Under the pieces are notes generated by a model that did no database searches, was not told where the DNA came from, and saw only the letters and a program-made list of their open reading frames with translations. Below, piece by piece: positions 23,736 through 50,103 of a DNA stretch of 50,103 bases. The position numbers and the translations under genes were made by a program. This DNA is from Terrimicrobiaceae bacterium (GTDB lineage Bacteria > Verrucomicrobiota > Verrucomicrobiia > Chthoniobacterales > Terrimicrobiaceae): contig JBIIPZ010000022.1 in the NCBI GenBank assembly GCA_044342325.1, forward strand, positions 1-50,103, written 5' to 3'. How positions within the stretch are numbered: the first letter of the stretch is position 1; every line of letters starts with the position of its first letter.

Positions 23736-23765
23736 CTCCGTGCTCTCTGTGTCCTCTGTGGTTAA
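23736..23765. repeat. Solitary 3 x 9-bp tandem arm CTCCGTGCT-CTCTGTGTC-CTCTGTGGT-TAA
   Basis: Directly visible 9-bp periodicity in the lpxD-prmC intergenic region. Confidence 0.7.
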
Positions 23766-44780: not shown

Positions 44781-45437
44781 ATGACTCTCTCGCTTCGCAA
44801 GTCTAAAAAACAACGCGCCTTCTCGCTGTTAGAACTTCTTGCCGTCACAGCCATCCTCGCACTGCTCGCAGGCCTGCTTTCTCCAGCCCTACAAGGCCTC
44901 ACCAGCCCGACCGGACGCAAGGGCGCTGTAACTATCGTCATGAACACGCTCGAGCAAGCCCGCGTCTCGGCCATCGAAACCGGCGGCGAAGTCGTAGTGG
45001 TCTTTTGGAAAAAAAATGGAACCGATGCATCACAACCCGATGAACAAGATGCCATGCTCATCCTCCGCAAAAATGATGTCGAAGCCTGGGAACCCATCAC
45101 CCGTTGGATCAAGCTCCCGCGCGGCGTTCTGTTCCATGGCGAGGATTCAGAGTCCAAAATTCTATATGACAATTCAGGCCTTGCTGCCGTGAGCGACTCA
45201 ACAATCGACTCCCTTCCTGGAAAACCTTCCAAACACAACCTCGGTGCCATTCATTTCTCCGCCACCGGTGCCGTGCAACTACCCAGCACCTCAAATGGGC
45301 TCCGCATCGCCCTTACAGAAGGCCAGCGCGGATCGGATCGATCTCTCATCGTCGACAAGCAAAAAGACGGTGGCCACGAGATCATCTCCCTCGCCCGCTA
45401 CACGGGACGCGCTACATTGGATGTCAGCATGTTGTAA
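44781..45437 (+). CDS. Pseudopilin, Verru_Chthon cassette protein D-like (FimT/GspH type)
   Basis: Basic leader, AFSLLELL type IV pilin N-terminus, LEQARVSAI helix. Confidence 0.8.
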   Translation: MTLSLRKSKKQRAFSLLELLAVTAILALLAGLLSPALQGLTSPTGRKGAVTIVMNTLEQARVSAIETGGEVVVVFWKKNGTDASQPDEQDAMLILRKNDVEAWEPITRWIKLPRGVLFHGEDSESKILYDNSGLAAVSDSTIDSLPGKPSKHNLGAIHFSATGAVQLPSTSNGLRIALTEGQRGSDRSLIVDKQKDGGHEIISLARYTGRATLDVSML

Positions 45438-45446
45438 GCTTCTGGC

Positions 45447-45965
45447 ATGACGCAGGCAAAAAGCCACTTCCGACCTGCCAACTCCCCTCTAGTCCACAAA
45501 CATCTTCCCGCATTTTCGCTGGTCGAAGTCGTGATCGCACTCGGCATCATATCTTTCGCCGTCATTGCCATCGTCGGCATGCTCCCCGTTGCCCTGAAAT
45601 CCTCCCAAAACAGCATGCGAGAGACGGATGCCACACTCATCGCCCAAAGGATTTTTTCAGAACTCAAGACAGGATCCGGCGGCAACAGATCCGTCACCAC
45701 GGACCCCAGTGGCACCTTGAACCAAACGATCAACCTCGCCGCGAATAGCACAAACTACCTCGCATTCACACAAGACGGCACAGTCCAAACGCATACAAAC
45801 ACACCCACCCCGAATCCCTCCTACGACTTCTACGCGCAGATCAGCGTCTTCACGAATACAGGCATCAGCAACCTCTCCCGCATCCAAATAGAAATCACCT
45901 ACCCCCCTTCCGCACCGCCCGCAGCAAGAACAACGAACTCTTTTGTAACGCTTTTAGGATTTTAG
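45447..45965 (+). CDS. Pseudopilin, Verru_Chthon cassette protein B-like
   Basis: AFSLVEVVIALGIISFAVIAIVGMLPVAL N-terminus. Confidence 0.82.
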   Translation: MTQAKSHFRPANSPLVHKHLPAFSLVEVVIALGIISFAVIAIVGMLPVALKSSQNSMRETDATLIAQRIFSELKTGSGGNRSVTTDPSGTLNQTINLAANSTNYLAFTQDGTVQTHTNTPTPNPSYDFYAQISVFTNTGISNLSRIQIEITYPPSAPPAARTTNSFVTLLGF

Positions 45966-46424
45966 ACAGAATTAACAAAACTAACAGAATTTATGAAAAC
46001 AGATTATGATCTGGCAGGTAGAATGATCGGCGCTGCTATGGAGGTCCATAGATGTTTAGGGCCGAGGTTTGTTGAATCTATGTATGAAAATGCACTGGCT
46101 ATCGAGTTGGAGGCCTCCGAAATTATAGCTGAAAGACAAAAGTCCATCAAGGTCAAGTATAAGGAGCAGTGTGTCGGTAATTTTTTTGCGGATTTAGTCG
46201 TAGATCAGACGCTTATTGTTGAACTGAAATCTATTCAATCCATCCTGCCCATTCATGAAGTCCAACTTGTAAACTACCTTGCAGCAACCGGCATTGACGA
46301 GGGCGTCCTATTGAATTTCGGATCGGAGAGCCTGCAATTCAAAAAGAAATTCCGAAAGCCAAAACAGTAACAAACCACAAGGGCGTTTATAAATTTTGAA
46401 ATTTCTGTTAATTCTGTCCAAAAA
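45960..46424. mobile_element. GxxExxY gene bracketed by ~33-bp imperfect inverted repeats (putative mobile unit)
   Basis: Left arm TTTTAGACAGAATTAACAAAACTAACAGAATTT (45960-45992); right arm reverse complement TTTTGGACAGAATTAACAGAAATTTCAAAATTT (~46391-46424), 27/33 identical. Confidence 0.55.
45993..46370 (+). CDS. GxxExxY family protein (PD-(D/E)XK nuclease fold)
   Basis: IGAAMEVHRCLGPRFVESMYENAL, ADLVV...IVELKS, QLVNYL, GVLLNFG; visibly more AT-rich than its neighbours. Confidence 0.93.
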   Translation: MKTDYDLAGRMIGAAMEVHRCLGPRFVESMYENALAIELEASEIIAERQKSIKVKYKEQCVGNFFADLVVDQTLIVELKSIQSILPIHEVQLVNYLAATGIDEGVLLNFGSESLQFKKKFRKPKQ

Positions 46425-47160
46425 ATCTTCTGCCTTTTCCTTATTGGAAGTCCTTGTCGCCATATCGGTTCTATCCATCATTCTCGTCATTCTTCTCAAC
46501 ATCGTCCAAAATGCCACAAGCCTCTGGCGCGGAGCTGAAAACAAGGTCGAGGCTTACCGCGAGGCGCGGGCGGCTTTGCAGGTGATGTCATCTGATTTGA
46601 AAAACATTCTGCCAACGACGAATACCGATTTTTTCCGAACGAATCTTACCAACACCCCGAATATCGGCTTCCTCGCCGCGCTGCCCATCAGTTCGCAAGA
46701 CACAACATCCAGCAAAAGCGATATTTGCGCCGTTGGTTACTTCGTCGCCTACGACAACAAAAGCCCCGTCGCCGGAAACAACGGACGCCAATCCTACAAT
46801 CTCTACCGCTACTTTGTCGAAAGCAACGAGACCTTCGCGAAACTCGCGAACAAGCCGCAAGACGTGCTCAACCTGAATACCAACAATTTCGAAATCCTCG
46901 CCCGTAATGTAATCGATTTCAATGCAAACTATTTTACAACAGATGGAACCAATCTTTCCACATGGACCCGCCACCCGGCGACAAACATGCCACACCTCGT
47001 AGAAATCAAGATCACATCGGTCAACAACGAAAGAACCATGCGCTTCGGAGCACGCAATGCGGATGCCGAATGGAAGGATTTCTCCTCAAATACAAACTCA
47101 CCCGACTACTTAAAAAACACCAAAACTTTCACCACAAGAATCAAGCTCAACACACCGTAA
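46396..47160 (+). CDS. Pseudopilin, Verru_Chthon cassette protein C-like (PilW/GspJ type)
   Basis: AFSLLEVLVAISVLSII, REARAAL...SDL, VGYFV, LYR, LARNV, PHLVEI. Confidence 0.82.
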   Translation: MKFLLILSKKSSAFSLLEVLVAISVLSIILVILLNIVQNATSLWRGAENKVEAYREARAALQVMSSDLKNILPTTNTDFFRTNLTNTPNIGFLAALPISSQDTTSSKSDICAVGYFVAYDNKSPVAGNNGRQSYNLYRYFVESNETFAKLANKPQDVLNLNTNNFEILARNVIDFNANYFTTDGTNLSTWTRHPATNMPHLVEIKITSVNNERTMRFGARNADAEWKDFSSNTNSPDYLKNTKTFTTRIKLNTP

Positions 47161-47163
47161 ACT

Positions 47164-47245
47164 TTTTAGACAAAATTAACAGAATATATCAAAAAACAGC
47201 CCAAATTCTAATAAATTCCCTAAATTTTGTGTATTCTGTCTAAAA
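47164..47245. repeat. Empty inverted-repeat pair of the same family as the GxxExxY arms (MITE/REP-like)
   Basis: TTTTAGACAAAATTAACAGAA at 47164 and, on the reverse strand, TTTTAGACAGAATACACAAAATTTAGGGAATTT at 47245-47213. Confidence 0.8.
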
Positions 47246-47249
47246 TCCC

Positions 47250-50103
47250 ATGATAATCCGCTGCCAACAAAAAGCTTCCGCGCTTGTCACCACGCTCTTC
47301 GTGGTGGTGGTCTTGAGCACGATCATCGTAGCCTTCCTCACCAGTATGAACCTCGAGCGCCGTATCGCCAAAAGCATACAATCCAAATACCAAGCTGAAT
47401 TGGCAGCGGAGGCGGGAATGCAGGATTTTCTGGCGCGCCTTGAAAACATAAAAACTGATGGACCTTACTCGGCGTTTTATGTTTTAGGTTCAAATAAAAA
47501 TCCTTATCTTTTTCTTGGAAAGCGCATTTTTTCTTCAAACGGCACCATAACCAAGCGGGTGCCTCTCTTTTCGACCGGGGTAACAAACTTCAATACGCTC
47601 ACAAATTTCGATGCAACTTTTTTATCATCCAGTTCGATCGCGATTCAAGACATAGACCGCTCTGGGACATTGGTTTCCCGCAATCTTTCAAACTCAAACG
47701 ACATCTGGTGCGACATTAACAAAACCAACGCCCGTTTTCCAAGCGGTCTTGTGGGACTTCGCAACACCTTCACAAACACAAATACAATTCCACTCCTTTC
47801 TGCGAATTGGATTTACATTAAAAATGCTGCAGGAAAAGTGGTGGGCCGGTATGCCTATTGGGCGGATGACGAATGCAGCAAACTCGATCTGCGCTATGCC
47901 GGTTCCGCCAACAACCTCACCGGCAACCACACACGCTCGAACGGATCGACATTCAACGAACTCGCCCTCACTCCGCTCACAAATACGCCAGCTTCCACAG
48001 CGAATCTAACCTCCAGCAACTTGGCAAATCTCCTTGCCTTCACAAACACCTCGATCCAAGCCTTGCCGCTCAGCCCGCAGCATGCACAATATACCATAGC
48101 GGCCGCCGGAAATTTAACCGAAGCACAATGGCAATCCATCAAACCATTTGTGACAATCTACTCACGCCACGACGAGCGCTCTCCCGATGGCAAACGCAGT
48201 GTCAACCTGAATGCGCTCGTCACCTCCACAACGGATGCGGCTCCAATCGCCAACCAAACCCTAACCATCCGCGATGCAATCACCAACAACCTGCCAAATT
48301 TTGGCGAGCGCTTTTACTCCGCGGCCAATGGAACCGCCACAATTCCAACAACAGCCCACCAAAAAGCGTATGCCACCCGCATCGCAGCCAATATCCGCGA
48401 TTTTGTGGATACAGATAATCAGGCAACGATTATTCGATCCGACGACACGGCTTATTCTGGGAACTCGCCGGATTTTATGCCGCACGACCCTACTATTCAG
48501 CAGGATGAAGACATACCGATCGCTTTCGGCAAGGAAATCGGTCTGACACTTTCCGAATACACCCGCGTCACCCGTGTGGTCAACCAACCAACTGGCGCAC
48601 ACCCGCCATCAAGCACGACACCGGTTTCCATTCAACTTCGCTTTGGTCATTATGTCGAACTCGCCAATATTTCTGGCAAGACTATTTCCACGAGCGACCT
48701 GGGAAATGATCCACACATCCTTTTGAGTGGAAGGGGAAACTGGATCAATGCCTTCGCGGGCGGTAGCCCGGATAAACTACGCCTTTCAGATTTGAAAATG
48801 CGCCTGCCCGCCAACCTCTCCATCCCACCCGGCGGCCATGTTTATATTACAACGGATGGCGGGCCATTTCCCTGCGATAGCCAGAACGATCTCCTGGGAT
48901 CAATCTCCACCAATCGCTACCAACTCACATTCGGCGCCAACCCCGGACAGTGGAATCTCATGAACACCAATGGAAATACGCCAATGGCAACCAGCACCGG
49001 ATACGAGGACTATTTCATCAGCACGCGGGCAATAAATAGCGGGGCAAGCAAAAGATACGCCGTTTACAACTCGGAATCGCTGTCCAGTCCAAGTTATCCC
49101 AACCAGCAGGAGCGACTCATTTTGGCGAACTCGAGCGGGATCATCGACTGCGCCTTTCGCATCTACAGCACTCTCCGTCAATATGTCATGCGAGACGAAC
49201 AGAACCCCTCGTGGTGTTCCACAGGTCTCAACGATGCAGAATCTGCAACTGAAAACAACGCTCCAAATTCCTCAACCTCCGATCCTCGATTCACCCGCGG
49301 CGACCTTCGCTCCAATTTCGAAATCATCTCGGTGGTGAAAAAATCCACCTCCCAGTCATGGAAAAACTCGGGTGATGGAACAGGTAACTCGCTCAATTCC
49401 GCACCCCAGATATCGCTCGGGAGCACAAATTACAATTACGCCTTAATGTCAGGCTATACTGGCAATGCATTGTGGCAAAAAGGCCTCTACGAGTTCACCA
49501 CTGACCCTGCTGGCAACCATTTTGTTAAAAACACCAATCTCACTTCGCTGGCCGAACTCGGCTATATCTACGATCCCATCCGTCACGACATAGAAGGTTA
49601 CAGATCAATGGGCGCGACACTCCGCATCGGACAGTCTGACTCCGCCACGAACAACCGGGCCACAAACAGCACGGCAAACTTCCAAAACTGGCTCGGAGGC
49701 CGAGGCAGCGACTCTGCGACGAATACCGCTTATTCAAAGAATGCGTTTCTACTGATGGATGTCTTCCGCACAGACACAAATACCTCCGGCAGAATCAACC
49801 CGAACAGCATCGTTCGTGATGGAGTCGGCATTGTCATGCGATCCGCACTCACCGGTTTTTCATACGAGGGGAATGCCACAAATGGTGCCTCCACGCTCTT
49901 GGGAAACTCCACGCTGAATCCGACAAATACAGTTGCCGCAATCCGCGACTTTGCCACAAATTCCACCAACGGCTTCATAGTGTCCGTTGGCGACCTTTCG
50001 AGGGTTCCGGCGTTTTGGTCGTCCAACAACAGCACAGCCAACATAGTGCCCGGAACAGTCATGAGCGCGGCCTCGGATGCCGGCAAGGAGGAGCTCCTAC
50101 GAC
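47250..50103 (+). CDS. Large PilX/GspK-like protein, Verru_Chthon cassette protein A-like (partial, runs off window end)
   Basis: Absent from the ORF track because no stop is reached; ATG 47250 gives MIIRCQQKASALVTTLFVVVVLSTIIVAFL, and the same frame gives GRYAYWADDECSKLD, IAANIRDFVDTD and finally DAGKEELLR. Confidence 0.85.
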   Translation, partial: MIIRCQQKASALVTTLFVVVVLSTIIVAFLTSMNLERRIAKSIQSKYQAELAAEAGMQDFLARLENIKTDGPYSAFYVLGSNKNPYLFLGKRIFSSNGTITKRVPLFSTGVTNFNTLTNFDATFLSSSSIAIQDIDRSGTLVSRNLSNSNDIWCDINKTNARFPSGLVGLRNTFTNTNTIPLLSANWIYIKNAAGKVVGRYAYWADDECSKLDLRYAGSANNLTGNHTRSNGSTFNELALTPLTNTPASTANLTSSNLANLLAFTNTSIQALPLSPQHAQYTIAAAGNLTEAQWQSIKPFVTIYSRHDERSPDGKRSVNLNALVTSTTDAAPIANQTLTIRDAITNNLPNFGERFYSAANGTATIPTTAHQKAYATRIAANIRDFVDTDNQATIIRSDDTAYSGNSPDFMPHDPTIQQDEDIPIAFGKEIGLTLSEYTRVTRVVNQPTGAHPPSSTTPVSIQLRFGHYVELANISGKTISTSDLGNDPHILLSGRGNWINAFAGGSPDKLRLSDLKMRLPANLSIPPGGHVYITTDGGPFPCDSQNDLLGSISTNRYQLTFGANPGQWNLMNTNGNTPMATSTGYEDYFISTRAINSGASKRYAVYNSESLSSPSYPNQQERLILANSSGIIDCAFRIYSTLRQYVMRDEQNPSWCSTGLNDAESATENNAPNSSTSDPRFTRGDLRSNFEIISVVKKSTSQSWKNSGDGTGNSLNSAPQISLGSTNYNYALMSGYTGNALWQKGLYEFTTDPAGNHFVKNTNLTSLAELGYIYDPIRHDIEGYRSMGATLRIGQSDSATNNRATNSTANFQNWLGGRGSDSATNTAYSKNAFLLMDVFRTDTNTSGRINPNSIVRDGVGIVMRSALTGFSYEGNATNGASTLLGNSTLNPTNTVAAIRDFATNSTNGFIVSVGDLSRVPAFWSSNNSTANIVPGTVMSAASDAGKEELLR

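Follow-up and report, generated by a model that had tools for sequence, protein, structure and literature searches.

A GxxExxY gene paired with clade-specific inverted arms in a pseudopilin operon of a Terrimicrobiaceae bacterium

Why does a small gene of the GxxExxY family sit between inverted, periodic repeats in the middle of a pseudopilin operon? The question is raised by a stretch of 50,103 nt from a Terrimicrobiaceae bacterium (contig C76 of a draft genome of 2.93 Mb, 78 contigs, and 56.5% G+C), which we call the window. The original prediction for this stretch was that the GxxExxY protein, a putative nuclease, and the repeat arms around its gene make up a mobile or shuffling system, comparable to repetitive extragenic palindromic (REP) sequences and their REP-associated tyrosine transposases (RAYTs). 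The observation behind this prediction was confirmed and its interpretation was partly supported: the gene and the arms belong together far beyond this locus, and the copy in the window is a long-standing resident of its operon. The gene and its four arms are arranged as follows.

45958-45992, forward strand: arm 1, a T-run plus GAC and then three 9-nt steps with an ACAGAAT-type core, filling the entire spacer between pseudopilin gene B and the GxxExxY gene
45993..46370, forward strand: the GxxExxY gene, encoding 125 amino acids of the PD-(D/E)XK type, with matches to the PF13366 and TIGR04256 profiles
46392-46425, reverse strand: arm 2, the inverted partner of arm 1, located by the inverted-repeat search and the nhmmer profile
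47163-47188, forward strand: arm 3, starting 3 nt past the stop codon of pseudopilin gene C
47213-47247, reverse strand: arm 4, the inverted partner of arm 3, ending 2 nt before the ATG of gene A

As predicted, there are four arms of about 33 nt with a 9-nt period, placed around the GxxExxY gene and at the next gene junction. They were recovered both by an inverted-repeat search, in which the inverted pairs measure 38 to 43 nt with 81 to 82% complementarity, and by an nhmmer arm profile (E values of 1e-6 to 6e-4 for the four). In an arm, a T-run plus GAC precedes 9-nt steps such as ACAGAATTA / ACAAAACTA / ACAGAATTT, and each step is made of a 7-nt core, ACAGAAT or a near variant, and 2 further nucleotides. 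The steps follow one another directly, and an arm by itself is not the short imperfect palindrome of a REP-like repeat. Arm 1 contains the TAG stop codon of gene B (45963-45965) and, as had been claimed, ends at the base before the GxxExxY start codon (45992, with the ATG at 45993). Together, arms 3 and 4 make up a hairpin unit without a gene at the C|A junction. The outer ends are TTTTAGAC...GTCTAAAA at the window unit and TTAAC...GTTAA in a second arm type; because both are palindromic, a target-site duplication would be indistinguishable from the repeat and cannot be read. The arm pattern has 17 matches in the window genome, and its reversed control has 0 in all 41 genomes of the genus, which excludes a chance origin of the pattern. 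Rfam holds no known RNA family at the arms. On a metagenomic contig of run X5, arm 3 has one extra ACAGAATTA step (window 47169).

To what extent are such arms a property of GxxExxY loci? We compared the 150 nt upstream of each GxxExxY gene with the reverse complement of the 150 nt downstream, using 100 shuffles per locus and a score threshold of 14 that was chosen after the control distribution was known. In the genus, the flanks are inverted-complementary (score of at least 14) at 25 of 28 evaluable loci, and 27 of the 28 beat all 100 shuffles. The same inverted flanking arms are present at 25 of 28 loci from 28 genomes in a wider sample of the phylum, which comprised 29 further loci in 29 Verrucomicrobiota genomes, 28 of them evaluable. 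In the control, only 1 of 300 open reading frames (ORFs) of the window genome reached the threshold (control median, 8; 95th percentile, 10). Once all arm words are included, the proposed check that arms and GxxExxY genes are colocated thus comes out positive in both samples, and the GxxExxY gene plus its arms form a unit throughout the family.

At the GxxExxY loci of the genus, the flanking arms are runs of roughly 9-nt steps that abut the ORF, and the repeated word varies with the clade of the protein:

ACAGGAT / ACAGAAT: the clade at the pilin locus
CACGGAG or CACAGAG: the clade at the purQ|purL locus
CACGAAA, CGCAGAT, and CGCGGAG: other GxxExxY clades
CACGGAGG-CACAAAGA: another clade
CGCGGAGG: another clade

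When the arm labels are placed on a phylogeny of 70 GxxExxY proteins, they require 12 changes, in comparison to a mean of 33.4 for shuffled labels, and all 200 shuffles required more. The phylogeny is a FastTree tree of 110 alignment columns, too few to resolve many of its forks. Members from other families occur in both the ACAGRAT clade (18 rows) and the CACRAAA clade (5 rows). We conclude that the arm word is specific to the protein clade. Taken as an association, this pairing bears out the REP/RAYT-like idea of the original prediction; the activity behind it is putative.

Genomes with a given gene clade also contain gene-less arms of the matching type, some in hairpin pairs and others singly. 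With the arm profile, we found about 25 ACAGAAT-type arms at 13 loci of the window genome, 4 of the arms being those in the window; the other 12 loci adjoin unrelated genes, such as mutS, a gene for a pentameric ligand-gated channel, a flagellin cluster, and a cation efflux gene. The window genome holds just two GxxExxY genes, the one at the pilin locus and one between purQ and purL (G000:C52:28960-29440). The second is flanked by the CACRGAG word, and the stop codon of purQ lies within the arm end. For CACRGAG, the triple-step pattern has 33 matches in this genome and the double-step pattern 89, with 0 for the reversed control, and many of the copies are inverted pairs 90 to 150 nt apart with the TTAAC...GTTAA ends. 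Two words whose gene clades are absent from the genome have 0 and 1 matches. Gene-less and gene-bearing units share the same termini. One CACRGAG triple-step match falls inside the window (23736-23760, reverse strand).

Across the 41 genomes of the genus, the number of ACAGRAT-type arms ranges from 0 to 65 (controls, 0). It is at least 6 in all 20 genomes with a pilin-locus GxxExxY gene and at most 4 in 16 of the 21 others. Similarly, of the two genomes that hold the CACGAAA gene clade, one has 5 arms of this type and the other 4, and none of the remaining 39 exceeds 1. Genome G011 (90% complete), which has no GxxExxY gene, carries 1, 0, and 0 arms of the ACAGRAT, CACRGAG, and CACGAAA types, respectively. 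Outside the genus, there are 152, 7, and 4 CACGAAA matches in three holders of that clade and 20, 13, and 39 ACAGGAT matches in three holders, versus 0 and 1 for either word in the same two comparison genomes, which were picked by hand and whose gene-clade content was not established.

Could the arms simply be an unrelated dispersed repeat, or a promoter or leader element, between two copies of which the GxxExxY gene lies by chance? The 12 window-type loci beside unrelated genes would fit such a coincidence, as would the sigma-70-like hexamers that can be read in the arms and the orientation of the single arms in the window genome, 9 of 10 of which, judged by eye, face a start codon with their T-run end. 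We nevertheless regard coincidence as highly improbable, given the frequency of arms at GxxExxY loci relative to control ORFs and the way in which arm type tracks protein clade. The orientation bias did not recur in 14 arms of other genomes, 2 of which faced a gene start under an automated rule, and the automated count in the window genome itself is weak (10 of 22 outer versus 5 of 22 inner). We had initially read the arms as an unrelated dispersed repeat, since a one-type profile detected them at just 4 of the genus's 30 GxxExxY loci, each of the 4 being a pilin junction; that reading was wrong because the search covered one arm type only, and the other loci were later shown to have other words. 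A promoter or leader function was rejected as well. The hexamers point into the arms, and a TTGAAA-N16/17-TAAAAA reading is possible on the other strand, but the orientation bias was weak under the automated rule and was not reproduced. Also rejected were CsrA sites. ACAGGAU resembles the CsrA consensus, and the genome has a csrA gene, but GGA is missing from the window type (ACAGAAU), and single arms mostly run antisense to their neighboring gene.

Several arm loci have features of their own. A GC-rich module of about 62 to 70 nt is nested in ACAGAAT-type arms, always at the same point past the first step and bordered on either side by GAATC (G000:C49:1290, C47:10063, C74:2792 and 4232, and C9:4641), and is also found at the C|A junctions of genomes G037, G039, and G033; it looks like a second small element that targets arms. 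In the five-flagellin cluster, a 1.25-kb spacer between two of the genes contains tandem units of about 290 bp (G000:C9:4650-5310), each with arms, one of which has four to five TTGACAGAA steps; similar arm-bearing tandem arrays are present in G033 and G050. The gene for the pentameric ligand-gated ion channel (G000:C74:1308-2745; Neur_chan_LBD, E = 4.8e-22) is enclosed by two ACAGAAT-type arms that face inward at a distance of about 1.4 kb from each other. A dispersed repeat of about 130 nt (G000:C74:4292-4426, 1422-1560, and 2590-2696) occurs beside arms and the GC-rich module, and copies with 78 to 86% identity are present in many congeners. Rfam also detected the catalytic domain of a group II intron where a 3.7-kb contig ends (G000:C49:3595-3699, locus L009; RF00029, 52.6 bits, gathering score of 40).

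What kind of protein do the arms accompany? The ORF at 45993-46370 matches PF13366 with 127.5 bits (cut-off, 22) and TIGR04256 with 129.8 bits (cut-off, 35), which places it in the GxxExxY family. The predicted structure (mean predicted local distance difference test score, pLDDT, of 91.2) is a minimal PD-(D/E)XK fold, and its Foldseek matches are Cas4 SSO0001, lambda exonuclease, RecE, and Hjc (E values of 8.5e-5 to 3e-2; template modeling scores of 0.43 to 0.58). A search by sequence found no solved structure of a relative. The catalytic residues D67, E77, and K79 are intact in the window protein and invariant in the 19 aligned sequences, and the D...E-x-K signature together with the modeled alpha/beta core assigns the protein to the PD-(D/E)XK superfamily, in agreement with the predicted core. 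Of the G-x-x-E-x-x-Y motif, the protein keeps E28 and Y31 and has Arg at residue 25, as had been pointed out, in place of the Gly found in the other 18 aligned sequences. A contig of another lake metagenome (run X14) has an A-to-G change at 46065 that restores Gly at residue 25. Passages of PMC8934634 and PMC3424549 that deal with the family call its function unknown or merely name the domain. The literature that we found on GxxExxY, PDDEXK_3, or Terrimicrobiaceae contains no description of the gene-plus-arm layout. For a large family whose small members have had no assigned function, the pairing with clade-specific repeats offers a concrete hypothesis, namely, that the protein is a nuclease specific for its own arm type.

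The surroundings of the gene are those of a pseudopilin operon:

44781..45437, forward strand: pseudopilin gene, Verru_Chthon cassette protein D-like, with a PF07963 N_methyl motif; TIGR02596, 34.8 bits, below the cut-off of 70
45447..45965, forward strand: pseudopilin gene B, with orthologues in congeners; TIGR02598, 35.5 bits versus a cut-off of 51.4
46396..47160, forward strand: pseudopilin gene C, with PF07963, leader MKFLLILSKKSSA, and cleavage motif A|FSLLE; TIGR02599, 55.7 bits versus a cut-off of 256.5
47250..50102, forward strand: gene A, large and minor-pilin-like, with a GspK/ComGG-like N-terminus and a frame that exits the window; weak NCBIfam matches, 22.9 bits versus 332.3

The neighbors of the GxxExxY gene carry the prepilin N-methyl motif, and the order D, B, C, A is that of the Verru_Chthon cassette (TIGR02596, TIGR02598, TIGR02599, and TIGR02600), the pseudopilin operons of Verrucomicrobia. 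The agreement with this cassette is confined to gene order and prepilin-type N-termini, and it differs in that all four window proteins score under the curated cut-offs. We know of no account that counts a GxxExxY gene or domain among the cassette members, and our literature searches found none. The GxxExxY gene is AT-rich within this operon, as predicted: its G+C content is 0.43 overall and 0.46 at third codon positions (GC3), versus GC3 values of 0.60 to 0.65 in the neighbors.

Is the gene, which the original prediction described as interrupting the operon, a recent arrival? The data contradict a recent interruption of the operon. In 20 of 41 congeners, the pilin-locus GxxExxY gene is syntenic, and every genome that has it carries it at the same B|C junction. 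As a separate, AT-rich gene between ACAGAAT-type arms, it is found in the window genome and in 8 congeners (G031, G033, G034, G037, G039, G041, G044, and G050), where identity to the window proteins is 63 to 86% for GxxExxY, 49 to 85% for B, and 58 to 90% for C; arm 1 is present at the same place in 8 other congeners. In comparisons with G037 and G039, the number of synonymous substitutions per site (dS) for GxxExxY is 0.54 to 0.57, similar to that of the neighbors (0.37 to 0.41 for B, 0.38 for C, and 0.59 to 0.63 for D), and the ratio of nonsynonymous to synonymous substitutions (dN/dS) is 0.13 to 0.15, versus 0.12 to 0.23 for the neighbors; over all usable pairs, dN/dS of GxxExxY is 0.08 to 0.17. 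The arms are near-identical even in comparison to G033, for which dS is 1.3 to 2.4 and synonymous sites are saturated. Contigs of lake metagenomes, from 4 runs of 4 studies, carry the arrangement of the window, one contig of 6842 nt spanning 45300-47500 and another spanning 45555-47464. The GxxExxY copy in the window is therefore an old, vertically inherited, single-copy resident of the operon under purifying selection. The purQ|purL clade is likewise fixed, being located beside purL at 19 of 30 loci, 11 of which also have purQ. Nothing points to a shuffling of pilin genes, which had also been suggested.

Our preferred reading, towards which we lean with moderate confidence, is a RAYT/REPIN-like system in which the nuclease recognizes its own arm type and gene-less pairs are copied or moved in trans. 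This reading is argued from the gene-arm unit, the clade-specific word, the matching gene-less copies, the vertically inherited copy under selection, the conservation of the arms beyond synonymous saturation, the extra 9-nt step on a metagenomic contig, and the invariant catalytic D, E, and K. By analogy with RAYTs, the nuclease would recognize the 7-nt words that recur periodically in its own type of arm, its probable substrate being arm pairs in folded or extruded form, and would cut at the outer boundary (TTTTAG|AC here and TTAAC|C in the second type). Gene-less arm pairs would thereby be copied or moved in trans, and the gene-bearing master copy would stay put.

A different history is that of an autonomous selfish cassette, in which gene and arms move as one after a nuclease-made break followed by repair or transposition, the hairpins are deletion derivatives like miniature inverted-repeat transposable elements (MITEs), and the window copy is old, immobile, and partly co-opted. 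We consider this unlikely; three observations speak for it. The same arm-plus-protein types recur in different families of the phylum, the gene-less and gene-bearing units have common ends, and the B|C junction has alternative contents. In G013, B and C are adjacent without any cassette. In G007 and G001 (85% nucleotide identity over B), a 337-amino-acid ORF6N gene replaces GxxExxY and arm 2, starting right past the first arm step (L026:1707-2720 and L027). In G015 (L029:1393-1930), an ORF6N fragment precedes a second copy of the 3′ end of B, an arm, and a fused GxxExxY gene, in this order, as if the truncated ORF6N copy had been integrated by recombination at that end of B. The proposed comparison of B-C junctions yielded alleles that do differ (filled in 20 congeners, empty in one, and with ORF6N in two) but no filled and empty pair with matching flanks, which counts against a moving cassette. 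The cassette also sits poorly with the fixed position of the gene, of which each genome has one copy per clade (beside purL at 19 of 30 loci, at B|C in 20 genomes), with dS values equal to those of the neighbors and low dN/dS, and with the intact arrangement in contigs from 4 studies.

Some of these observations also count against the preferred reading of arms copied or moved in trans by their own nuclease, and others do so in addition. Within the genus, gene-bearing copies are not seen to move, and both clades remain at their fixed junctions. No excision or inversion joint was found in the contigs of the 4 runs from 4 studies, which cannot show rare variants, and the sole joint (45990 to 46403, with a side of 22 nt) fits another arm locus. 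At mutS, purQ/purL, and the C74 hairpin, synteny is broken or other repeats crowd the spacer, and no filled site could be aligned cleanly with an empty one to define the ends of the unit and any target duplication. Clear arms are lacking at 3 of 28 loci in each of the genus and phylum samples. Because adjoining arms are inherited together with the gene under any model, the tree result by itself attests to a lasting unit and not to specificity. The arm counts in the genus ignore kinship and are confounded by relatedness, and 13 to 21 ACAGRAT-type arms occur in G001, G007, G013, G038, and G042, in which no pilin-locus GxxExxY gene was found; among these five genomes, the gene is replaced in G001 and G007, and the junction is empty in G013. 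Finally, activity, binding, and cut site are all putative. For the originally proposed mobile, REP/RAYT-like system, the part that stands is that gene and arms belong together, on the grounds of the flank test, the tree, and the matching gene-less copies; a recent interruption of the operon, excision, and inversion are not supported.

The locus is further distinguished by what its downstream arm encodes: the leader of pseudopilin C in the window form and a fusion linker at 12 loci. In the window, arm 2 overlaps the TTG start of gene C and its first 10 codons (leader peptide MKFLLILSKK), TTG is the sole canonical start ahead of the cleavage motif, and both start and leader are kept in relatives. 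At 12 congener loci (including L029:2209-3360), GxxExxY and pseudopilin C are one open frame of about 385 amino acids, with no stop codon between the parts; the 27 codons ahead of the A|FSLLE motif are free of ATG, GTG, and TTG. The downstream arm is translated there as a basic, proline-rich linker, the length of which varies by whole codons among species, and A|FSLLE is intact. Public metagenomes hold more than 80 clusters (90% identity) of proteins that combine PF13366 with PF07963, and the pair recurs among 32 long relatives of the window protein, mostly 380 to 460 amino acids in length. One may speculate that a widespread nuclease-repeat partnership, driven by a PD-(D/E)XK enzyme in place of a tyrosine transposase, became wired to the pilus in this freshwater lineage, with the downstream arm turned into a pseudopilin leader or linker and the fused nuclease forming a cytoplasmic pro-piece of about 140 residues that prepilin peptidase cuts at A|FSLLE, which would tie the supply of nuclease to pseudopilus assembly; we think this doubtful. 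To our knowledge, a prepilin with a leader of about 140 residues is unprecedented.

Because the arms are part of the operon, they might act on its transcript. In such an RNA-level device, the arm stems would hide the starts of GxxExxY, C, and A and couple their translation to the upstream gene, or they would make a processing site, like the stems of rRNA intervening sequences, and the nuclease would be unrelated to the arms. The arms extend exactly from stop codon to start codon and are conserved far beyond synonymous sites. The stem of arms 1 and 2 is predicted in the minimum-energy fold (z = −2.51) and in an RNAalifold consensus of 7 operons, and the hairpin of arms 3 and 4 has a predicted energy of −13.25 kcal/mol (z = −3.77). 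However, the stem pairs are nearly all invariant, with just 3 compensatory pairs, each in one sequence, and G044 has no hairpin at the C|A junction. An RNA device would also leave unexplained the matching gene-less arms elsewhere and their absence where the gene clade is absent, and we judge it improbable. Neither the selfish cassette nor the RNA-level device is exclusive of co-option at the RNA or protein level.

How does the proposed nuclease-arm partnership compare with known systems? Integron gene cassettes with attC sites are similar in having a small ORF beside an imperfect palindrome, conserved ends with a variable middle, and an exchangeable occupant, as at the junction that holds either GxxExxY or ORF6N. 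The window genome does have an integron integrase (G000:C30:2039-2974; 415.9 bits versus a cut-off of 265), but there is no arm-profile match on contig C30 and the repeats beside the integrase differ, and we rejected a link to it. The integrase adjoins small reverse-strand ORFs and attC-like repeats (C30:1-1500) unlike the arms. MITEs and their parent insertion sequences share with our units the terminal inverted repeats and the presence of gene-less derivatives, here of about 90 to 150 bp, that have the ends of the gene-bearing unit. The differences are that no transposase of a known family is involved, that the interiors of the gene-less units are unrelated to each other, that a target duplication is unreadable, and that the gene unit is single-copy and syntenic.

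The closest parallel is that of REPs and REPINs with RAYTs, which belong to the IS200/IS605 Y1 HUH family. Common to both are a single-copy, vertically inherited gene flanked by inverted short repeats, the scattering of the same repeat through the genome as singlets and inverted doublets, a repeat type of its own for each gene clade, and repeat numbers that vary widely between related genomes. In contrast to RAYTs, the enzyme here is a PD-(D/E)XK protein of about 125 amino acids that matches PF13366 only and is not a Y1 HUH transposase. Each arm repeats a 7-nt word in tandem at a 9-nt step and contains no palindrome, and one of the arms is translated. A link to RAYTs themselves was rejected, as the Y1_Tnp (PF01797) genes of the window genome are not near arms, and such genes occur in arm-rich and arm-poor genomes alike. 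Because the fold of the enzyme and the type of repeat differ, the gene and arms may work like REP/RAYT but are not a member of that system. What the window adds is the fixation in a pseudopilin cassette, an arm that serves as leader-coding sequence, a nuclease-pseudopilin fusion in relatives, and a quantified link between gene clade and arm type in one genus. If our preferred reading is true, GxxExxY proteins would represent a second, independent route besides RAYTs by which bacteria maintain palindromic repeats, and they would explain many short intergenic repeats in Verrucomicrobiota.

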